DNA of 64,000 bases from Eledone cirrhosa (taxonomy: Eukaryota): NCBI GenBank assembly GCA_964016885.1, contig OZ024751.1, positions 51,150,001 to 51,214,000 on the forward strand, in the 5' to 3' direction. How positions within the stretch are numbered: position 1 is the first letter of the stretch; each line of letters begins with the position of its first letter. The translations under genes were made by a program, and so were the position numbers. Below are positions 1-60,400 of the stretch, one piece after another. The notes beneath the pieces are model-generated. The model was not told where the DNA came from. It saw only the letters and a list, made by a program, of their open reading frames with translations, and searched no databases.

Positions 1-2347
1 CAGCCGCTGAAGTACAGGAGGCAATGACTGGCTGCACAAGGGGTAAATCGCCTGGTTTGGATGGTCTGCTCTATGAACTTTACGTACAGATGCCAGACTT
101 GTTCGGAGGCCTCTTGGCGGACGTCTACTGCAACTGGCAACAGAAGGGGAGAATTCCCAGCTCTGTGAGCCGAGGAGCGGTGGCACTGCTCAGAAAGGAT
201 CCGAACAAGGAGGATAACATAGATAATTTCAGGCCCATAACTCTGCTAAACACAGAGTTCAAGATTTTGGCCAAGGTGCTAGCAAAGAGGTTGGCGCTTG
301 TCGTTGGTGGTCTGGTGGGAGAGGCGTAGACATGCGCCATTGCCGACAGATCCATCCACGACAACCTCCACCTCATGCGATACATCGTAGAGAGGGTAGC
401 TAGGGAACCTGGCACGGGTGGGTCCTTGATCAATTTAAATCAGTCGAAAGCTTTCGATAGGGTCGACCATCGTTACCTAGCGGCAGTCCTGCGGGCGGCT
501 GGCATTGGGCCCGTCTTCAGAGGCTGGATCGCTGCCATGCACAGCGACATCTTCTCTGTGGTGAGAGTGAACGGTCACCTTTCGGAACCGTTCAACATCA
601 TGCGCTCGGTCCGCCAAGGATGTCCCCTCTCGTCCCTCTTGTACGTATTGACTCTCGAGCCATTACTGCACAAACTGGAGACGTTGAGGGGCGTCCCGTG
701 CGAACTAAGATGCAGAAGATCCGTGTCAGCATATGCGGACGATGTCACCGTAGTGGTGTCGAACGCCAAACACATCGAGGCGATCGGCACTACACTAAGA
801 GAATACGAAGCGGTGACAGGAGCAATGATCAACCAGGAAAAGTCAGTGGGCCTGCAGCTCGGCACCTGGAGAGGCAGGTACATGCCGTCCAACAGCGTCG
901 TCGGGCGCTGGACGGACGGACCGGTTAAATTGCTAGGGGCGTGGTTCGGTCCGGACCTCCAGACGGACAAAAACTGGGACGAGGTGATGAGCAGGGTGGC
1001 TTCTCTCACCCAGAAATGGGCGGAGAGGAAGCTATCCCTGAAAGGTCGAGCGGAGGTGGCTAACGCGTAGATCGCGTCTGTCATCTGCTACCGCCTGACC
1101 GTCGTACCTTGTCCTAAGCCCCGCCTGATTGCGCTGGAGCGTTTGCTCTTTCGCTTTTTGTGGAAGGGACGCGCTCTGATGGTCAGGCGGTCCATCTGCT
1201 GTCAACACCCGCTACGTGGAGGGCTGGGAATGCCGTGGCTGATGATGCGCAGACACGCGCTCAGGCTACGGCATCTCCACCTCTTCCTCGACGGTGATCA
1301 GGTGTGGTCGCCATTTGCTAGACACGTATTTCCCCAGCTCGTTTCCTTGACGGAGCTGCAGTCCTGGGTCAAGTGAAGACCGAGAGGGAGCTCCTGGAGA
1401 CTGGAATGTCTTCAGGTGCTCACAGCCCTCGACCAATCGGGCAATGTGAATGGTGGAAACTCCACCTTGGCGTTCTATAGAGGATTAGTGGAGGGGAAGA
1501 GCGACGACGTACTTGGGGAAACTCTAGGTGTCGACGAAAATCAACTAGCCAATCTCTTCGGAAGAACTTTCGGGCCGGGGCCTATGGACAACTTCCAGAA
1601 ATCTCTGGCCTGGCAGTACTACCGAGGAGCCTTGCCAGTTCGGGATAAACTCTACAGGCATGGAGGTGCCGTCAGCCGGGCATGTCCGAGATGCGCGCAG
1701 GGCGATGAAACCGTCCTGCACGCACTCGTCCAGTGTCCGAAAATTGCTGACTTGTGGGTTTATGTCGAACACCTGCTGTCGCGTGTAGGATGGATCCGGC
1801 TATCATCTGAGTCCATCGTGAGGATTGCCCCGCCCTCTTCCCTTAGCCGGGAAGGGCAGGCAGTTTTTATCTGTCTGGTGGCCATGGCGAAAGAGATAGT
1901 ATGGTGGATACGTTTGAAAGGGCTGAAGACGAGCACTTACCTCTTCGGTGATGCTCTGATTAACTTTTTCAAATTTCATTTGAAAAGGAAAATCAGGGTA
2001 GAAAGGGAAGTGCTCTCTTCCCAGCATTTTGTTGAAAGATGGGTGAGAGAGGCAAGAATGGCCCGAGTGAATGGGCCTACTCTGAGTATGTGTCTGTAAA
2101 TTAAAGGTGGATAACTGGGAGAGGGCACTTGCCCTGGTGGTCAGGGTCACTGTGGCTTTTTAATGGGCTTTCTCCACCAATGTCCCTCGGAAGTCTCCCC
2201 CCTATTGGGGAATTTTTTCATTGTTCTATTATTATATCCTCTGTTTCTTTTTTTTTACACGCAGAAATGCCCATTTGTACCGCCCTGTATTGTCCTGTAC
2301 TGTCCTTAATGTCTACTTTATGTAAACCCTTGTGGTTAATAAAGAAA

Positions 2348-2349
<2 letters not shown>
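1..2349 (+). mobile_element. Tx1/L1-clade non-LTR retrotransposon, copy 1 (5' part outside window)
   Basis: ORF2 remnant with RT motifs (NFRPITLLNTEFKILAK, KAFDRV, VRQGCPLS, AYADD) and a C-terminal CPRC..ETVLHALVQC zinc finger. The 3' UTR ends CCTTGTGGTTAATAAAGAAATC, followed by (ATT)n. Confidence 0.93.
3..2099 (+). pseudogene. ORF2 (reverse transcriptase + zf-RVT-like domain) of Tx1-like LINE copy 1, interrupted by three premature stops
   Basis: ORFs 24-329, 375-1070, 1143-1376 and 1416-2099 share one frame. Stops are TAG 327-329, TAG 1068-1070 (TAC in copy 2) and TGA 1374-1376 (CGA in copy 2). Confidence 0.9.

Positions 2350-2391
<42 letters not shown>
2350..2391 (+). repeat. (ATT)14 microsatellite between the two LINE copies
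   Basis: Direct reading. Confidence 0.97.
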
Positions 2392-2605
2392 GAATGCCAT
2401 GGTTGACGGAGGCTCGGCTCTGTAAGGTATAGTAATTTTTAACCGTTAAAACAATTGTAAATTGTTTAAAACTTGAACCAAATTGTTGATAAAGACACCC
2501 TCCTCCTCGTGAGAGGGGTCTTTCTGTCCGTTATTTGGCCCTTCGGGGTTAAATAACCAGTTATTGGGGTTTTGTACCCAATATTCATTTTAAACAAAAA
2601 ACAAC

Positions 2606-4710
2606 ATGGCTACGAAAAAGAAATTTCATACGTCACTCCCACTCATTCCGTCTTCTTCTTCCTCAATCATCACTACAGCAGAGAGAAGATTGTCTCTCTC
2701 CCTCCCTTCTTTAAATGTGTCTCTCTCCCTCCCTTCTCTTTCGCAAGTGACGAAAGAAAAGAAAAGTCTCGTGCAAAGCGTGCAAGGTTTCTCCACGACG
2801 ACGACAGCGACGAAACAGGTGTGCGGGAAATACGAAAACCCAGTTCATTCGTCTGACGTCAGGAATAATAGCAGTAGCAGCCGTAATAACAACAGCAACA
2901 GTGACAATGAAAACAACAGTAGCAGCCGCAACAGCATCACCAGCAGCATAAACAACAACAGTATTAGCAGCAGCAACACCAACAACAACCACAGCAACAG
3001 CGGCGGAGGCAGTAGTCGTAGTACCTGCAGCAACAACAAAAGTACCAGCAGCTCTGACGACAACAACAACAATAGCAGCAAAGAAAAACCAATCTCATTT
3101 GCAGGTATTGCGAAAAACTTGGAAACAATCCTCATAACAAATGAGGAATTAGAGGAAGCGAAGAAGATGGTGAAAAAGAATGGACACCGAGCAATCTGCA
3201 AGGCAGCGGAAACATTTTTCGAAACCCAACAGCACTGTACGGTCACGTACCGTACAGTAAGTACAAAATCCCGTAGAGTGGAAAGAGCCACAGAGGCTCA
3301 GATACAAAAAGCCTTGGGGTCTGTGTGGCAGCGGAAAACGCACATCACCCGAGGCAAAAAATATGCCACCGTAGACGTACTTTTTGCCACACCCCAGGAG
3401 GCAAAGGCCCAATCAGTAGTGACCCTAAGGAGCGAGGAAATGGTGTTGGTGCCCTCCTACTGCGGGCAAAAAATTGTGATGGTCAAACTGACCCACATCC
3501 CCCCCCCCCCGGAATGGCCCCTTCTTGGCTGGCCACGTCTGTCCTCGTCGGAATCGAGGACAAAACAACTGTACTGCAAGTACAGAAAAAAGTAAGAGAA
3601 GATTGGGTAGGCACCTCCATTGAGATGCTAATCCAAACCAACCAGGAGTGCATCGAAGCTATCCCGGATGTGATAGATTTCGATAACGGCACTCAACTGC
3701 CCATAAGTGTTGAGGGCAAACGCCCGAAATGCTTTCGCTGTGGATCGAAGACTCACCTCACGGCCTTCTGCAACGAGAAGACCCTGAGAAAGGAGACAAC
3801 CCCCTCCTTCCGAATCCGGCTCCACGGCTACCAGCAACAGGACAAGCGGCAACCAGGAACGATAGGTCCGTGGCACCCATACCCACTCCACGGAAATCAA
3901 AAACAGCAGCAGCAGTGGAAATATTAACAACAACAACAGCAATACCAAATGCAGCTGCAACAGAGACTCCAGTGCAAACATCACCAACAACAACAAGTGA
4001 AAGAGTGGAGCTGGTACCCCTCCCCGACCTCACAGAATCAGACATGGAGTGTGAGGTGGGAGAGGGATGGCAAAAGGTCGTAAGAAGGCACAAACGCAGA
4101 AGCAGCGCATCGTCGCCTTTGAAAAGGGAGGAAAGAAATGAGAAAAGGGTAAAGTCTACTGCAAAGAGACCCACAGCAGCAACACCACCAACACCATCAC
4201 CACCCACACTAGCACCACCATCACCACCGGCGACAACCCCACCGCCAACAACACCTTCAACACCACCACCACAAGCACCAACATTGCAAACACAACAACA
4301 AAACACACACACCCAGCAACAACGACAAGAAAATAGCAGAACCACACCCCCACCCCCAGAAAAACAAATACACGGCAATAAATACACACAACAAGAAACT
4401 AATGACGTACATAATTGAACACACAGACATTTCACAACAGGACTACATAATACCAGCACCAATCAAAACGCCAACTAACATAAGACTGCTAAAAATAGCA
4501 CAGAAACAATACACAAACATTAAAACGAAATTCCCCAACGCAGTTGGTGATTTCAGGGACCTAGGAGGAACCATCAATCGAAGAGTATATTCAGACATTC
4601 TCTTAGAAGAGCCGACGACCAGCCGAAGGGACGATTCAACGGTCCCTTCACCAGACGATCAAGTGAAAAGGGATGTAAAAACCATCCCTCCTCTACCAAA
4701 AGTACGGTAA
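2606..4710 (+). pseudogene. ORF1 (nucleic-acid-binding, CCHC zinc knuckle) of LINE copy 2, frameshifted
   Basis: Overlapping ORFs 2606-3595, 3325-3927, 3729-4418 and 4402-4710 join into one protein, with one frameshift at the C12 run 3499-3510. CX2CX4HX4C knuckle CFRCGSKTHLTAFC at 3730-3771; GWQKVVRRHKRR motif typical of such ORF1s. Confidence 0.8.
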
Positions 4711-4745
4711 GTGGTCTTTCCCATCTTTTCCACTCTATTTTAAAC

Positions 4746-5984
4746 ATGACCTCACTCAGAATAGGCAGCATAAATGCGCGTGGCTTGGGGTCGTCATTGG
4801 GGCCGTCGCTGGACGGACGGACCGGTTAAATTGCTAGGGGACCTCCAGACGGACAAAAACTGGGACGAGGTGACGAGCAGGGTGGCTTCTCTCACCCAGA
4901 AATGGGCGGAGAGGAAGCTATCCCTGAAAGGTCGAGCGGAGGTGGCTAACGCGTACATCGCGTCTGTCATCTGCTACCGCCTGACCGTCGTACCTTGTCC
5001 TAAGCCTCGCCTGACTGCGCTGGAGCGTTTGCTCTTTCGCTTTTTGTGGAAGGGACGTGCTCCGATGGTCAGGCGGTCCATCTGTTGTCAACACCCGCTA
5101 CGTGGAGGGCTGGGCATGCCGGGCTGATGATGCGCAGGCACACGCTCAGGCTACGACATCTCCACCTCTTCCTCGATGGTGATCAGGTGTGGTCACCGTT
5201 TGCTAGACACGTGTTTCCCCAGCTCGTTTCCTTGACGGAGCTGCAGTCCTGGGTCAAGCGAAGACCGAGAGGGAGCGCCTGGTGACTGGAATGTCTTCAG
5301 GCGCTCACAGCCCTCGACCAATCGGGCAATGTGATCGGTGGAAACTCCACCTCGGCGTTCTATAGAGGATTAGTGGAGGGGAAGAGCGACGACGTACTTG
5401 GGGAAACTCTAGATGTCGACGAAAATCAACTAGCCAATCTCTTCGGAAGAACTTTCGGGCCAGGGCCTATGGACAACTTCCAGAAATCTCTGGCCTGGCA
5501 GTGCTACCGAGGAGCCTTGCCAGTTCGGGATAAACTCTACAGGCATGGAAGTGCCGTCAGCCGGGCATGTCCGAGATGCGCGCAGGGCGACGAAACCGTC
5601 CTGCACGCACTCGTCCAGTGTCCGAAAATTGCCGACTTGTGGGTTTATGTCGAACACCTGCTGTCGCGTTTAGGACGGATCTGGCTATCATCTGAGTCCA
5701 TCGTGAGGATTGCCCCGTCCTCCTCCTTTAGCCGGGAAGGGCAGGCAGTTTTTATCTGTCTGGTGGCCATGGCGAAAGAGATAGTATGGTGGACACGTTT
5801 GAAAGGGCTGAAGACGAGCACTTACCTCTTCGGTGATGCTCTGATTGACTTTTTCAAATTTCATTTGAAAAGGAAAATCAGATTAGAGAGGGAAGTGCTC
5901 TCTTCCCAGCATTTTGTTGAAAGATGGGTGAGAGAAGCAAGAATGGCCCGAGTGAATGGGCCTACTCTGAGTATATATCTGTAA
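4746..5984 (+). pseudogene. ORF2 remnant of LINE copy 2: APE endonuclease start fused to post-RT region
   Basis: ATG at 4746 gives MTSLRIGSINARGLGS (APE motif I), then jumps to sequence matching copy 1 near 906. Also a 1-bp deletion near 5121 and TGA at 5283-5285. Confidence 0.85.
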
Positions 5985-6233
5985 ATTAAAGGTGGAAAAC
6001 TGGGAGAGGGCACTTGCCTTGGTGGTCAGGGTCATTGTGGCTTTTTACTGGGCTTTCTCCACAAATGTCCCTCCGAAGTCTCCCCCCTATTGGGGAATTT
6101 TTCACTGTTATTTTTTTGTTACATCCTCTGTTTTTGTTTTTTACACGCAGAAATGCCCATTTGTACCGTCCTGCATTGTCCTGCACTGTCCTTAATGTCT
6201 ACTTTATGTAAACCCTTGTGGTTAATAAAGAAA

Positions 6234-6235
<2 letters not shown>

Positions 6236-6282
<47 letters not shown>
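6236..6282 (+). repeat. (ATT)n microsatellite 3' of LINE copy 2
   Basis: Direct reading. Confidence 0.97.
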
Positions 6283-13979: not shown

Positions 13980-14092
13980 AGTAGCATAAAATCTAGATTA
14001 TTGACAAGAAAGATGATAATATTATATTTCTTTGCAGTTAATAACTTGTTCATTTAAAGATCGTTTTGCCAGGAATATATAATATCTGGATT

Positions 14093-14414
14093 TCTGGGTA
14101 AATAATTGTTTCTACTTTAGGCACAAGGCCAGCAATTACCCCAGTGCATTACTGGTACTTTATTTTATCGACCCCTTACGTAGAAACAATTATTTACCCA
14201 GAAATCCAGATATTATATATTCCTGGCAAAACGATCTTTAAATGAACAAGTTATTAACTGCAAAGAAATATAATATTATCATCTTTCTTGTCAATAATCT
14301 AGATTTTATGCTACTTCACCACACTGCCACTTCCACCACCTCTACCACCACCTCTATCACCTCTACCACTGCTACCGCTACCACCACCACCACCTCTACC
14401 TCTGGGTAAATAAT
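14093..14414 (-). mobile_element. 5'-truncated SINE family A insertion with 14-bp TSD and a 215-bp inverted copy of flanking DNA
   Basis: TCTGGGTAAATAAT at 14093-14106 and 14401-14414. SINE 3' end at ~14107-14175. 14180-14394 is the reverse complement of 13901-14115. Confidence 0.88.
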
Positions 14415-14644
14415 GGAGAAAATTTAGATTTTGACAACATTCATCGATTATACACAGAAACATAGAGACATATATACACATGCTCACTGATATATTTTTA
14501 TTTATAGATCTATATAGATCTATATTCCTACACTCATATATAAACATACATACATGTAAATAAGAATATGATATATATATATAAAATAAATTAAAATAAA
14601 ATAAAATAAATAAGTCAAATGTTTAAAATTTGGCTTTGTTTATT

Positions 14645-14699
14645 ACTGCTATATATATTTCGGTGACAGCCATCTTTGGCTGTGACCTCTTCAGGCAGT
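14645..14699 (-). ncRNA. Minimal type I hammerhead ribozyme motif, canonical core
   Basis: Minus strand: ACUGC | CUGAAGA | GGUCACAGCCA-AAGA-UGGCUGUCACC | GAAA | U-AUAU-A | UA^ | GCAGU. Stem I 5 bp, stem II 10 of 11 bp, short stem III with palindromic loop. Confidence 0.85.
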
Positions 14700-15298
14700 T
14701 TGAATTAGTGTGGTAGAGACGAGTACACATGTTGTTGAGGTGTATAACTTTGTCAATACTCCGATATGCCCAGTTCCTGGTTGGGTTGTTATTTCACTGA
14801 GGAACTGGCATACAACCAACATATACTCAAAATTTATATATATATATATATAAATGATGATCATGATGATATATATGTATATACATATATACACACACAT
14901 ATATATAAATATATAAATGATGATGATGATATATATATATATAATCATCATCATCATTTAATGATCATTAAATGATGATGATGATGATGAGGATGATATA
15001 TATATATATATGAAATTTATAAAAGTACATTTAGATTTAAACTAGAACCAGAAACAGAAAAAGAAAGAAAGAAGAAACTAATTAGAAAGCAACAACAACA
15101 CTACCACAGCCACCACTACCACCATCACCATCACCAACAATAAAAAAAAAAAAATCATTATATAAAAAGTATAAAATAAATACAAATATGATAGCAAAGT
15201 ATTTTAAATCATCTTCTCTAAAATAATATTCTATGTAGTATAACAAAAAAAATATTAAAATACTAAAATTTCCATATTAAAATTTTGTTTATTATATC

Positions 15299-28125: not shown

Positions 28126-28230
28126 GATATATATATATATATATGCAAAAGTTCTATTTAAAATTGCTGGGATACAACAAGTAAATATTTTTATAACTGA
28201 TATAAAGCACTCAACAAATTTTTGGAGTAG

Positions 28231-28610
28231 ATATACGATATTAATAAATGGAAACTATATTTATAAAACCATATTTATTTCATTATACATATTTCAGGGA
28301 TACCACATTAAATTATGGTATGCCTTCATCAGACAAAATACAATATATGTCTTTGTTCTTTTCTCTTTCTTTCTCTCCGTCTTTTTCTAATTGTGCTTAA
28401 CACTATGACTTATTATATGAACAAATCACTATCCAGACAGCCTCCAAAAGTAATGGTTGTATTTTAAAGGGTACGTCAAACCTATTTGTAAAACTGTTAT
28501 ATATTGTATTTTGTCTGATGAAGGCATACCATAATTTAATGTGGTATCCCTGAAATATGTATAATGAAATAAATATGGTTTTATAAATATAGTTTCCATT
28601 TATTAATATC

Positions 28611-28616
<6 letters not shown>
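28231..28616. mobile_element. Fold-back element: 118-bp inverted arms (28231-28348 / 28499-28616) with a degenerate hammerhead motif
   Basis: Arms are reverse complements with a 150-bp spacer. The right arm contains UUGU CUGAUGA AGGCAUACCA..UGGUAUCCC UGAAA UAUGU AUAA (28511-28564). Abuts (TA)n. Confidence 0.75.
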
Positions 28617-28655
<39 letters not shown>

Positions 28656-52636: not shown

Positions 52637-52883
52637 TTAGGAAACAAATGCACAAGGGATGTAATCTTTGGCAAGCAGAACACTTAGTGTTACAAATATT
52701 CCATACATGACTATCATAGCAACTCCAAGAATTTTATTCAAGCGCCATCTGCTTGCAACAATTGAAATGATGACCAACATCAGCATCGTAAAAAGCATAA
52801 CTATAGAACAGAACATGCCGGCACTGCTGACTGTAACTGGTTTCTGGCTGATAATACATTTCATGAGCCATGGAAATGGTAAA
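52637..52883 (-). CDS. SLC24A2: NCKX terminal coding exon (LPFPWL...DYIPCAFVS*)
   Basis: Acceptor TTTTACAG at 52884-52891, stop TAA at 52637-52639, hydrophobic TM segments. Confidence 0.93.
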
Positions 52884-53550
52884 CTGTAAAAGATAAAATT
52901 CAAAAGCTTCAGTTTATATATTATTTATTTATTGATTGATTGATTTTGTTATCTTCAATAATTTCATAATACTTTACATATATATATATGTATGTATATA
53001 TATAATATATATATGTATGTATATATATATAATATATATATGTATATATATGTATGTATATATAATATGTATATATGTATATACTCAGCTGTAGAAATGA
53101 GATGATAGGGACTGAGATCCCTATCATTCCACTGCAAAGTGGTCGTGGAGGTGCCACGGCAAAAAAGCACCCAGTACTCACTGTAAATGAGGTTGGTGTT
53201 AGGAAGGGCATCCAGCTGTAGAAATCAAGCCAGAATGAGTTCCCGTCCCACCCTTGCAAGCAGGGAAAAAGCGGACGTAAAATGAAATGATGATGATGAA
53301 TGATATAATATATATATATATATAATATATATATGTATATATAATATATATGTATATATATATAATATATATATATGTATGTATATGTATGTATATATAT
53401 ATTATATATATATATGTATGTATATATATTTTATATATATGTATGTATATATATATTATATATTATATATATATGTATGTATGTATATATATATAATATA
53501 TATATATATATGTATATATTATATATATATGTATATATATGTATATATAT

Positions 53551-53581
<31 letters not shown>

Positions 53582-53950
53582 ATATATATTATATCATCAT
53601 CATCATCACCATTTTACGTCCATTCTTCCATGCTAGTATGGGTTAGACGGGGAACTTATTCTGGCTTGATTTCTACAGCTAGATGTCCTTCCTAACAGCA
53701 ACCTCATTTACAGTGAGTGCTGGATGCTATTTTGCTGTGGCACCTCCACGACCACTTTACAGTGAGTACTGGGTGCTTTTTTGCCGTGGCACCTCCACGA
53801 CCACTTTGCAGTCCTATCATCTCATTTCTACAGCTGAGTAAACTGGAGCAATGTGAAATAAAGTGTCTTGCTCAAGGAAACAACACATCACCCGGTCTGA
53901 GAATTGAACTCACAACCTTTCGATTGCAAGGTCAATGCTCTAACCACTAA

Positions 53951-54007
<57 letters not shown>

Positions 54008-54391
54008 CAAGCGGTGCCTGTGCTTGAAGCTTCTTTAAGTGAAGAAAATCTTTGCATGGGGCCAATGCCACTCTCTTAACATCAAATGAATTTACCACAA
54101 AAAAAAATGGTCTACATCATTGGATGCAAAGGTAGTCACGGGTTTCATATCAGAGTGACCTTCTCCTAGAGAGATGTCTTAATAAAGACTAGGAGTCTCT
54201 TGCTCCACAAAACATGGACATTGACTCTCGAGTTCCTCTGCTCTTTGATGGGTTTTGTTTTTGATCCTGCAAAATTACCTTCCAAACTTACCTTCTCACC
54301 AAGCAAGCTTGGTGAGGTTACTGGTTTTAGTTGGTTATGACTCGACCATACACAGGTTGTACTGGGTTTCAGTATCTCTGAAGAGCAACCT

Positions 54392-54464
<73 letters not shown>

Positions 54465-57400
54465 ATACTTTGGGAGGGTCATGTTGCCAACAAGAAACAC
54501 ACGCACCAGTTGCTTTCACTTCAATTTATTATAATAAATTTATAAATTTCCGGTTGGTTGGTTGGTTCCACAACCAGATGATTGTTTATATATTGTCAAA
54601 GTTCTTTCGTCCCACATTCTGTGACCTCTTCAGTGACTGGGGATTATTTTCTTTGTTTTTGTGCCTCTCCTTTGTTCTGTCCTACGCCATCTTGTTTTTG
54701 TGTGCGTAGGACAGAACAAAGGAGAGGCCCCAAAACAAAGAAAAGAATCCCCAGTCACTGAAGAGGTCACAGAATGTGTGACGAAAGAACTTTGACAATA
54801 TATAAACAATCATCTGGTTGTGGAACCAACCAACCGGAAATTTATAAATTCCTAAATTTATAAATTTATTATAATAAATTGAAGTGAAAGCAACTGGTGC
54901 GTGTGTTTCTTATTGGCAACATGACCCTCCCAAAGTATAACAATATCGGTTTCAACACACGTTTTCAGATAAAGAATCTTGCTAAACAAATTCAGAAACG
55001 AAGTATATATATATATACACATATATACACACACACACATACATACATACATTATCGTAATCATTTCTAAGTCAGGTTCAAGTTAAGCAATTTTAGAAAA
55101 AGGACAAAGATAATTAAATCAATCTTAGTGCAATCTGGTACTTTATTTCATTGACCCTGGAAGGATAAAAGGCAAAGTTGACCTTGGCAGAAGTTGAACT
55201 CAATGAGGTTTGAGTAAGCTTTCTTATATTTTTGTTGCATTTGTAATGTTACACCATGTAACATACCTTCACACAACAACAACTACTTCACCTATCATAT
55301 TGGAACACAACAGCATTTATAATGTTTCTGAAAATGAAACACTACCATATTAATGCTATCATTGTTTAACCTGTTGACTGCCATGTATATTTTACACAGC
55401 TACAGTTGCTGTAAAAAATTTTTTCAGTGAAATGACTATCTTTTTAGACAAACATTTATTAACAACATATATCTGAATGATTGACAAATATAACATCAGT
55501 AAACAAATAACCCATTCTAGCTTTGAAGTTATAAACTGTTGGAAACGAGCTCATAACTTTGAAGTTATGACTGTTGGAAAAGAGTTCAAACATGTTAAGA
55601 CAAGTTATCTCATCCATGTCACTGGAATGCATACATGTTAGGATGAGTTTTCTCAACTATGGTACTGAAAGGGTTAAGGATGAACAAAAAAAAAAAATGC
55701 AACTAGTTTTTAGAAAACTTACCCTACTGTAATGTCAAAAATATTGCTTCCAACTGAACTTGAAACCGCCATATCACCAAATCCTTTTTTAGCTACAATT
55801 ACACTTGTGATGAGATCTGGGATACTGGTTCCTGCAGCTAGAATTGTTAAACCCATAACCTGGAATAGGAAAATGTTAACATATATGAATTTGTTGTATG
55901 AACAGCAAACAGTATTTATATATTCGAATGATGCCTCAATGCTCACCATCACTTTTTATCACTCTATTTCATTTCTATCATCAACTGTTATCATTCAATC
56001 TCTCTTCCATTATCTCTCTATCATCCTGATTATACATAAGGGATGGCATTGGATCTGTTCAAATTCTATACTCTACCATTAGCCTACTTTAGAGCTATCC
56101 ATCAATATTTTACTATCCATCATCTATATCAAATGTTCTCATCGGGGGGCGTTTCGGAACTCCAGGGGGGCGTTTGGGAGCAAGGTCGCGTTAGAGGGGC
56201 GTTTGGAGCTGGGGGAGGAGGGTTAGGGGGGCGCTGGAAGACTCTTTATTTTGGTAAGTTTTATAAGCCATATTTGTATGTCTTTGAGACAGCCAGTATG
56301 AATGCATTTGAATGAGCTTGCAGACAGCATAACTATAGTCTGACCGCAGCTGTGAGCAGGTGTGCAGGCATGTCTTGTAACTGAGACGTTAACCGGTAAT
56401 TGAGATCCTAAAAATGGAAAAACCCACAGTCAACTGGGTCAAAGACACTTTGAGTGCAGCCAGTTAGAATCTTATTTTTCCTTCACCGATAACAATGTAT
56501 TTCATGTCTGAAATTATTGAATCAACCATAATGAGTTAACACTATGTAGATCTATTTTATTCCTTATTGTATAAATAATATTACAAATAAAAAAAAGAAA
56601 AGAAAAAACAGAAGTGAGTAGCACACACATCTAGGACTACATAGAACACATAATCAGATAATACACACATCTAGGACCACATACAACACATAATCAGGTA
56701 ATACACACATCTATGGAATATTGTTAATCAATTTTTTAGTAATCTACTGATATAAAAATCAGTAGTATATTGAAAAATGGAAAAATAGGGGGGGGGGGGG
56801 GTTTCGTGATTTCGAGGGACAAAAGGCCGTATTTGGCCAGAATTCTCTCACCCTTTTATGTTCAAACAGGCTGTAACTCATATTGATGTTAAGGTATTGT
56901 TCTCAAAATAAATAATATAAAAATCTCATAGATTCGATAATATGTGAGATAATTATGTAAGATAAAACCTTTACCACAAAAATACAATAGTATATATAGA
57001 GTAATGTAAATGCTAAAGAGTTAATCATTCACTCTCTTTCAAACATTAAAACTTTGATTGTGATAGTGGAGGGATTAATGTTAAATAACCCCATCAACCC
57101 ACAATTGGCCAAGCATGGTGACCAAGCAGCTTACACCCCTGAAATGACCAAAACCAAACAGAAAGCCAAAAAGTTCAACCAGGGAAGGGTTCCTCCATCA
57201 GGAGTGAGAAAGCCCTGGATTGGATATATTATATATGCGTGTCTTTGTATAAAAGAGAGAATAAGAGACATTTAAGTGAAATATAGTGTGTAATATAATA
57301 GACTTACAGTATCTTCGACGTATGTGGCACTGCCTGATGTGTCAGCCCACCATACCATTAAATAAGAGAATGCAGCAATCCAGATGATACTGCCAATAAA

Positions 57401-60400
57401 TGTGACGGGGAAATATTTTTTCTTGGTCTGAAATATAGACAAAATCAAAATATAATATAATAAACTGTTGTAGTTTGCTTGAAGCATTGTATATGATATA
57501 TAATGTGGAAAGAAATATATGGCTAAACAATGCAAAATGGACTGTAAGATGTATACTCTGAAGAAGGGATTTTAAGTCTCAAAATATTAGGATGAAAGAA
57601 ACAACAGCAACAACAACAAAAATAAACAAAAAAGACAAAGATTACCAGGTAACTTACTTTTCTGTTACCCTTCATCTTTCAATCCATTTTGCATTGTTTA
57701 GCCTTATATCTCTTTCCACATTATAAAATATAATATATTACAACAGGGGGGTTTCATATAGTTAGACAGGCCTGACAAAGTTACTTAATATAACAGGAGG
57801 TCCCCTTCACCCCAGTCAGTTATGACTGACCTTAGGATTGCACCTAGAATATTCCTCGCCATGGCATAAGCCTAGGCAAATGTGTTTTTGGAGAAGAGCA
57901 GGTACCAATGCATGCTAGTCTCCCAAATCCACATCCCCAATGTTGTCTATCATTTATAGTGTATATATGAGTTACGACGTCACTGTTGCCAAGTTGGATC
58001 ACAACTTAGATTAAAATATAAATTATATTATCTTTATGATTTACAAAATGAACAATTCAAAATAAAAAAAAAAGAGTCTGAAAAGAGATAAAAGAAGGAA
58101 CAAAACAGAACAAGACATGACACATCATTAAACACCACTACAGTGAATGTTAGATTTTCCCTATAAACACTTACACCACTGTGGGTGATAGTGAGGCTAA
58201 GAAGTTTAAATAGGCGAACACTCTCATAAACTTCACTTGATATTTGTGAATATATTTTAAATGATAAACTTCCATCCAGCTATCTTTTGCCTTGACAATA
58301 AAATAAACAACAGCAAGAACAAGAAAAACATATAGTACAGTCTTTACTTACAGCTCTCCGTACATCTGGTAATGTAAACCATAATATGAACATTATGGGT
58401 GCCACAAATATATATGATATTCGTTTCTTGTTTTCTTTTGGCCAGCTAATATCTAAAGGTTCTTCCTCCTCCACTAATCCCACTGGTGGTGCTGCCATAT
58501 CTCCACCAGTTTCAGGTAAGGGGAGTTCTTTCTGTAAAACAATCAAAGAAATCTTTATCCATTTCATTATCATATTTCCAATTTGATATTTCTATCTGAA
58601 AATAATCAAGAATTTTGGCAACTTTAACTAACTTTCTCATTGTACTCCAGACTCTGTGTATCTAGGTACTCTCTATCCCTACAAAACTCTGAGTCACAGA
58701 GAAACTGGGTACACCATGTCTGAGAACACAGTGAGGCTGGGTACACCGTGTCTAAATACACAGAGAGACTGGGTACACCGTGTCTGAGTACACAGAGAAA
58801 CTGGGTACACACAAATAAACTCAACATAACCACTTACTTCTTTTGGTGCCACGGTAGAGTTTGGCGATGGCAATTTTATTTCTTCAACTTCAGGCGGTGT
58901 ACAAGGGCTTGTTGCCTGAAGTGGTAAGTCAGTATTGGACCCTATTTCTGCTGAGCCCATGTTTGTCAGCTGGGTTTCCTGACTTCCCACCTCAGTACCT
59001 AGTGATGGTTGTTCCTTTGCTGAAGCCTGGTCTTCGCTGGCTATCTTCCCATTAGAAATAGCATGAATGGACGGGTCTTTGCCACCTTTTTCTATACCTT
59101 CTTTCTCATTGTTTTCTTCCACAGTCGACTCGCCATCTAGTACAACGTTCAGAGTAGCAACTGCATGCATTTTTACTGCTTTGTCTTGAACTTTGGCTGA
59201 ATACGGAGGAAACAAGGAAAGGTTATAGGGATTTTGAGAGTAGGCTTATTTAGTGAAAAAAATACATGGCAATGGTTGGGCCACATTTTTTGGTCCCAGC
59301 CATAAGGATGATTAATACATAAAACTGTAAATTGTATAATTTGAACTGCCATAAGAAGAGGAAGACCTAGTCCTACTTCTCTGAGAACAATGCAGAATCA
59401 GATCATGACTGGAAAAAGACTAAAGCAGAAACATATAACAGACATGGCTGACAAAAATACATCTAGGCATTTTGTGTCAAGTGGCTGGCATTTGAGATAG
59501 TAACAGAAACAATAACATTAAGAAAGAAACAAATGTGAGTTCTATGTTTCAGACTGTGGACCTTCATCAATAGACAGAGAGGAAAAAGAAACAAGAAAGC
59601 AAAGGAGTGTTCGATAATGGATGTACAGTGGATGAGGAATGTTGGAAAATGGCGAACTGGATTAATCAATCCTGTTTCTTAACAGAAGAGAGGTTCAAGT
59701 TAAGGGGGATAATTGGTGGGAATATTGATGTATGTGTGTATGTGCATGTGTTTTCTTGTATGAGTACACGCATGAATATGCTTTTTTTTATCTATGTGTG
59801 TGTGTAGGTAAAAGAGGGAAAGGAGGCAGTGTGCATGTGTGTATATGGGGGGAAGAATGTACGGGAGAGTAGTGTACTGGGGTGGCAATGTATGGGGGTT
59901 TATGTGTGTGCATGTGATTGTGTTTGCATATAGTAAGTTTAACCCTTTAGCATTTAAACCGGCCGTATCAGGCGAGAATTCTCTCACTCTTTTTGTTCAA
60001 ACTGGTCATAACCAGCCACTCACACTGATGTATAGTTCTCAAAATAAATAATATCATAATCTCATAGATTCGATATTATGTAAGATAAAGCCTTTACCAC
60101 AAAAATACAATAGTATATATAGAGTAATGTAAATGCTAAAGGGTTAATCAAGCAAGGACTTGACTGGTACTTTATCTCATCAAACCTAGAAGGATGACAG
60201 TCAATATCAACTCCAGTAGGATTTGAACACAGAACATTATGAGGCATAGCTAAATATTGCAGGTAATTTGTGTGACACTATCAATTCTGAGAAGCCACGA
60301 TAATATTTAGAACATGCTCCCATTTTCATTTTTTTTCTAGAACTGTCACTCTGAAGTTGATTGAGAAATCAATGTATAAAGACAAGGAGATATGTAGAAC

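Follow-up and report, generated by a model that had tools for sequence, protein, structure and literature searches.

Minimal hammerhead ribozymes have already been described in the end repeats of Penelope-like elements (PLEs) (PMC4209133, PMC8557442). Those of metazoan PLEs (Cervera and De la Pena 2014, PMC4209133) combine a 5-bp stem I, a long stem II and a palindromic helix III and are mostly solo copies from truncated elements; for Schistosoma PLEs, no cleavage of monomers and a low level of cleavage of dimers are reported (PMC4209133). The Hydra clade, which includes Hydra-1_Obim (Craig et al. 2021, PMC8557442), is marked by RWK, DKT, CxCx5C, CxxC and CxH motifs without CCHH, by a (TA)n target and by hammerheads (PMC8557442), and a tail at one of the insertion's ends is known in PLEs (PMC8557442, PMC3846280). 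In the Poseidon element PAc of Anolis (Frangieh et al. 2024, PMC11167929), the tail marks two internal RT start sites. According to the same paper, the PAc hammerhead needed the element's protein, insertion was possible without cleavage, and no read ends fell at the site. The hammerheads of invertebrate retrozymes that have a 2-bp helix III are reported to cut well as monomers (PMC7229834), and of four triplets compared in ELVd, AUA reacted most slowly (PMC1636495).

The window analysed here, that is, the whole 64-kb stretch of DNA, contains a hammerhead of the minimal kind on the minus strand, in a short PLE insertion. In the relative numbering used below, the first base of stem I (14699) is 0, and the predicted cut falls between +49 and +50. 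The features are as follows.

14592..14811, minus strand: pLTR stub of a Hydra-clade Penelope-like element, about 220 bp, recognised by similarity to copies L022 and L112
14699-14645, minus strand: type I minimal hammerhead, recognised by descriptor, fold and 997 exact genomic copies
14699-14695 and 14649-14645, minus strand: hammerhead stem I, ACUGC/GCAGU, 5 bp
14694-14688, minus strand: hammerhead core CUGAAGA
14687-14662, minus strand: hammerhead stem II, 10 of 11 positions paired, one C.C mismatch, AAGA loop, G10.1-C11.1 closing pair
14661-14658, minus strand: hammerhead core GAAA
14658-14651, minus strand: palindromic AUAUAUAU of the hammerhead, an 8-nt palindrome
14650, minus strand: H17 of the AUA triplet, predicted cut 14650/14649
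14644-14639, minus strand: AATAAA 3' of the hammerhead, followed by (TTTTA)n and (TA)n; it belongs to the family sequence
14765..14811, minus strand: predicted 5'-terminal hairpin of the element's RNA leader, with a CCAGUUCCU/AGGAACUGG stem (prediction only)
14810..14835, plus strand: inverted 26-bp tail piece of the element, with its end at E2, the second 3' end
14836..14851, no strand: (TA)n target microsatellite, one flank, from the sequence
14571..14582, no strand: (TA)n target microsatellite, other flank; a target-site duplication is not resolvable
52640-59245, minus strand: exons of a Na/Ca-exchanger-family gene, the last of which matches PF01699

The initial annotation had described a complete canonical hammerhead core on the minus strand, and all core positions were confirmed by the descriptor and by the fold. 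The 5-bp stem I, the 10/11-bp stem II, the self-complementary AUAU loop III and the AATAAA with its AT-rich tail were likewise all found, and the cut position proposed there agrees with the AUA triplet, in which 14650 would be H17. The motif has the marks of type I, namely a CUGANGA plus GAAA core, an NUH site, stems I and II, and A15.1-U16.1. Helix III is formed by 2 bp, A15.1-U16.1 and a U-A pair, around AUAU, and it is the short palindromic helix permitting a dimer that is typical of PLE minimal hammerheads. The proposal that the palindromic loop suits dimers was borne out by modelling, in that the cofold MFE of two copies was a predicted double hammerhead lying 7.2 kcal/mol below two monomers. 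The fold of the 55-mer had a z of -3.95, and none of 200 shuffles was equally good. A strict hammerhead descriptor matched 4 times in the 64-kb window. In 200 block-wise dinucleotide shuffles it matched 0.01 times on average, with one match in each of 2 shuffles. In Rfam, no hammerhead model matched the window motif at the gathering score or at E<=10, and the miRNA matches obtained were dismissed as low-complexity or inverted-repeat noise.

Several details differ from the described hammerheads. Stem II has 11 bp, whereas it has 7-8 bp in the metazoan PLE hammerheads (PMC4209133) and 7 bp in Hydra-1_Obim, which also has a UUU-type site instead of AUA (PMC8557442). The extra nucleotide between A9 and 10.1, which is usual though not universal in the hammerheads described in PMC4209133, is absent here, the G following A9 being paired with C11.1 (P 0.99). 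Other hammerhead sequences were seen elsewhere in the window. A head-to-head inverted pair at 28228-28348 and 28499-28619, with arms 99% identical, carries in each arm a full hammerhead that belongs to a different family, with CUGAUGA, an extra A and an AUA site; a relative is present in L118. A second inverted pair at 54457-55003, between exons of the exchanger gene, carries hammerheads of a third family, which has CUGAAGA, an extra G and a CUU site and shares 15 nt with the motif at 14645-14699; its right arm has an extra tail of about 55 bp, at one end only. A weak hammerhead-like descriptor match at 22782-22686 (minus strand) has a poor stem II and is probably due to chance.

The stub begins at -112, 5 nt downstream of the inferred RNA start, and runs as far as E1, the first 3' end, which follows (TTTTA)n. 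It is about 97% identical to the natural copy L022 (5 mismatches, 1 gap) and 90.8% identical to the 3' pLTR of the ORF-intact copy L112. The inverted tail piece joins it via AT microhomology, and the two together lie wholly inside (TA)n. The window copy contains no ORF sequence, and there is no second copy of its family within the 64-kb window. Beyond the AATAAA, the element extends for about 150 nt and, where copies are in tandem, on into the ORF; the copies sampled terminate in (TA)n, not in poly(A). The closest coding exon found on the minus strand ends at about 52650, 38 kb off, and is the last exon of the Na/Ca-exchanger-family gene, which we take from its sequence features to be NCKX-like. 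The window also contains an inverted repeat at 14040-14255 that holds part of a SINE-like repeat of very high copy number (at least 17 copies in the window) and, at 1-6280 on the plus strand, two partial LINE copies with RT (PF00078) that end in (ATT)n and have a 1,161-aa relative in L035.

The parent element was traced through natural long copies, in which about 1.2 kb of non-coding sequence lies upstream of the pLTR, preceded by GIY-YIG endonuclease and RT. Protein search detected natural open frames of up to 896 aa, and 12 such regions were examined. L110-L113 have single ORFs of 890-896 aa with YRDD and GIY-YIG, as in EN+ PLEs; the pLTR lies about 1.2 kb 3' of natural ORFs of about 890 aa with RT and GIY-YIG in L111, L112 and L113, and it was found 3' of the ORF in at least L111-L117 and L119 among the 12 regions. 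In the tandem copies L112, L114 and L115, the pLTR continues from E2 into an ATG about 55 nt further on, which gives a unit of about 4.1 kb. A partial pLTR tandem, an inverted 5' copy and a tail at one end, all characters of EN+ PLEs, were present. PF01541 (GIY-YIG) matched L031 with an E of 2e-4, which is below the cut-off, and the whole of L112 gave no Pfam match. RMRWKAF (RWK) and HADKTNN (DKT) occur in L111 and L112, and a by-eye reading found CNCRNPESC (the CxCx5C linker), CKLCLNE (CxxC) and CRH (CxH) near E/N, with no CCHH. The ORF aligns along Hydra-1_Obim by eye in the supplementary alignment of PMC8557442, and a homologue search gave 43 matches with 31-55% identity.

On these motifs and the by-eye alignment, the element can be placed in the Hydra clade, with which it has in common RWK, DKT, CxCx5C and CxxC/CxH without CCHH, the insertion into (TA)n that marks this clade, the pLTR hammerhead, the inverted 5' copy and the one-end tail (PMC8557442). 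It is larger than the Hydra-clade elements described in that source, with a unit of about 4.1 kb and an ORF of about 890 aa compared with less than 3 kb for the clade and 2,507 bp and 709 aa for Hydra-1_Obim; a long ORF insert and the 3' UTR of about 1.2 kb also set it apart, and its tail of about 95 bp exceeds the usual 30-40 bp (PMC8557442). It is a new family of an already known kind, and the ribozyme itself is ordinary. In the open-access text searched, and in the supplement of PMC8557442, neither this family nor an extra G at the 5' ends of PLEs was found to be described. In L112 and L022, the long 3' UTR upstream of the pLTR has an internal duplication of about 150 bp (77-82% identity), and its length varies between subfamilies. 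Other Hydra-type families adjoin copies of this one (L031:7856-9901, L035:7745-8323 and L121), one with an Asn-rich insert and one 68% identical, consistent with shared (TA)n targeting.

The exact 55-mer is present in 997 copies in the 3.0-Gb genome, and a one-letter variant with U at 11.1 in 3,638 further copies, with reversed controls of 0 in both cases. The 211-bp surround gave 2,277 candidate matches, 40 of which were scored and were 94-98% identical. The copies were divided by the flank of the hammerhead (AA or GG) and by the base at 11.1 (C or U). The window copy is of the AA/C type, with only 26 exact copies. Median predicted probabilities of stem I and of the 10.1-11.1 pair were 0.49 and 0.95 for AA/C (6 of 6 natural copies folded), 0.20 and 0.76 for GG/C (25 of 41), 0.29 and 0.29 for AA/U (25 of 29), and 0.02 and 0.04 for GG/U (8 of 8). 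In GG-flank copies a predicted hairpin sequesters CUGA, and the probability of stem I was 0.14 in L022 compared with 0.75 in the window copy without flanks. The UUCG/CGAA distal extension of helix I is present in GG copies and absent from the window copy. The largest lineage has G10.1.U11.1, in contrast to the conserved G-C of the hammerheads in PMC4209133. The window copy is thus predicted to be among the better-folding members of the family, the abundant lineages being weaker. This difference could reflect selection for a damped ribozyme, or AA/C could just be a recombinant or a transitional form of brief duration. Of the 12 AA/C loci viewed, 11 appear to stand between the subfamilies, and the window copy is otherwise GG-type.

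Folding with ViennaRNA, which ignores tertiary contacts, gave a helix III probability of 0.006 for the window copy as a monomer. The motif had been said not to be locked in a long fold-back, and this holds as far as the inverted arm is concerned, which is only 26 bp and leaves the motif uncovered. In the 656-nt local context, however, the AU run of helix III (loop III) was predicted to be about 80% paired and stem I to form with a probability of only 0.12. The cut site is spanned intact in 6,427 copies. A longer TA run at the cut site was found in 35 copies; among 30 examined, 15 were without the hammerhead body (two being the arms of one insertion), and the rest were loop expansions or mutants. 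Copies truly starting at the cut site therefore number about 17, or about 0.3%, counting junctions to TA sequence, and these starts are explicable by TA microhomology. Because 6,427 copies span the cut site and only about 0.3% start there, the copied template was likely almost always uncut. Four sequencing runs consisted of contigs behaving like DNA, with low depth on unique flanks and huge depth on repeats. The motif had also been proposed as the best candidate for an active ribozyme in the window. In a relative sense this was upheld, since it is predicted to fold better than the GG/C and AA/U lineages, whereas likely activity at the locus was unsupported: the copy is a lone stub, and published PLE hammerheads cut poorly, although the retrozyme hammerheads of invertebrates with a helix III of 2 bp do cut well alone (PMC7229834). 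At its present location, the window copy probably does not function as a ribozyme.

The ends of insertions were examined in 60 loci, taken in genome order with two patterns, which gave 46 distinct insertions after duplicates were merged by hand. There are two 3' ends, E1 at about +105 and E2 at about +201, with the tail of about 95 bp between them. Among the head-to-head pairs with both outer ends readable, 18 of 19 joined E1 with E2 (p 4e-5 at even odds). The lone exception, L180/181, was E2+E2, and E1+E1 was not found; three short fold-backs, two inversions short of an end and tail-to-tail neighbours were kept out of this tally. The window copy likewise joins an E1 arm with an E2 arm. An arm began at -105 to -126 in 26 of the 46 distinct insertions, these starts being centred on the A at -117 of TCATATG. 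Outside the GACT subfamily, 95 copies have TA joined at -117 and 813 read through -119. Where a purine replaced the template C at -118, it was G in 72 of 100 cases (the first 100 of 471), compared with 15 of 100 one base upstream (100 of 143; difference p 2e-16). In L201/202 and L203/204, both arms begin with the extra G and filler lies between them. A second hammerhead upstream was considered as the maker of the -117 end and rejected, as a by-eye look found no NUH and no stem II; a bacterial promoter scan, which is not relevant here, was at chance level.

An untemplated 5' G has been read as cap copying in L1 (PMC9341517). The evidence for cap copying in the present family is strong but not clean: in roughly half of the 19 inspected junctions with a G, this base could stem from the partner arm, and CA/TA microhomology tilts the -119 control in favour of A. 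The position -117 is likely the start of a capped RNA, and the stubs are likely run-off copies of its 5' leader. That both arms carry the extra G speaks for capped sense templates rather than antisense self-priming. It is nevertheless conceivable, although we rate it as improbable, that -117 is a site where RT stalls or joining takes place owing to the TCATATGA palindrome, to ATAT microhomology with the target and to the neighbouring hairpin, and that the pairs arise through self-priming, possibly of antisense RNA, as PMC3846280 proposes. The palindrome and the hairpin are indeed both present at -117, and many junctions are perfect palindromes; such a stall, however, leaves unexplained both the G that replaces the template C on both arms, with filler between, and the E1+E2 rule.

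The sharp common 5' end in 26 of 46 insertions, and the number of stubs, which far exceeds that of long copies in the sample, would also suit a separate non-autonomous, SINE- or retrozyme-like element with its own masters and a -117 start, mobilised by the Hydra protein. Animal non-LTR retrozymes (PMC7229834; bioRxiv 10.64898/2026.07.22.740005) do resemble the stubs in being non-coding units of 170-400 nt with a type I hammerhead and a relation to PLEs. Unlike them, the present unit is part of an autonomous element and is solo in the window, and head-to-tail monomers or arrays were absent among the 46 insertions. Moreover, the stubs are colinear with and 95-100% identical to ORF-bearing pLTRs, with the same subfamily variants, and the remaining 5' ends grade continuously up to full length, so that we regard a separate element as unlikely. 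Still less credible is that the window copy is transcribed and self-cleaving in vivo, as a monomer or trans-dimer, and ends or destabilises a local transcript. Its core positions and G10.1-C11.1 are all intact, its flank, in a combination with stem II found in only 26 exact copies, removes the predicted decoy hairpin, and the dimer fold is the MFE. Against this stand the helix III probability of under 0.01 and the mostly paired loop III in context, the slow AUA triplet of ELVd (PMC1636495), the lack of a same-family partner in the window, the 38 kb to the nearest coding exon found on the minus strand, and the poor cutting of published PLE hammerheads (PMC4209133, PMC11167929).

It is highly probable that the motif is the pLTR ribozyme of a high-copy Hydra-clade PLE, residing in a stub of about 220 bp in (TA)n and likely inactive there, because it has no partner copy and was probably copied from uncut RNA. 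In the cycle that we propose, transcription would begin with the A of TCA (-117) and give a capped RNA; the RT-endonuclease would nick both (TA)n strands, priming would occur at E1 and E2, both within the 5' leader, and RT running off the capped end would yield the short stubs and head-to-head pairs. The hammerhead, about 165 nt past the cap and about 205 nt ahead of the ATG, would seldom cut, and then as a dimer or together with the element's protein, and trans dimers between transcripts are possible given the thousands of copies. The cap, the start site and the cleavage behaviour are all inferred from DNA copies. PAc (PMC11167929) also has two 3' ends that bound a tail 3' of the hammerhead, an uncut RNA template and an AT-rich target cut on both strands. 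PAc belongs to a different clade, however, and in the present family the hammerhead, E1 and E2 all lie upstream of the ATG instead of in the ORF.

A more tentative reading, which we consider possible although rather doubtful, is that the hammerhead acts as a brake on the element that has been toned down in successful lineages. The stubs would then record the element cycle, with a capped RNA from -117, two nick-primed internal sites and uncut copying to the cap. The damped lineages would be those with the GG-flank decoy hairpin (about 970 copies) or G10.1.U11.1 (3,638 copies), and they would out-amplify the best-folding form (26 copies) because a cut would part the cap from the ORF. This family, which offers young copies by the thousand, natural members with an intact ORF and three hammerhead variants that occur naturally, is a good system for studying the function of PLE hammerheads and the formation of head-to-head inverted insertions.
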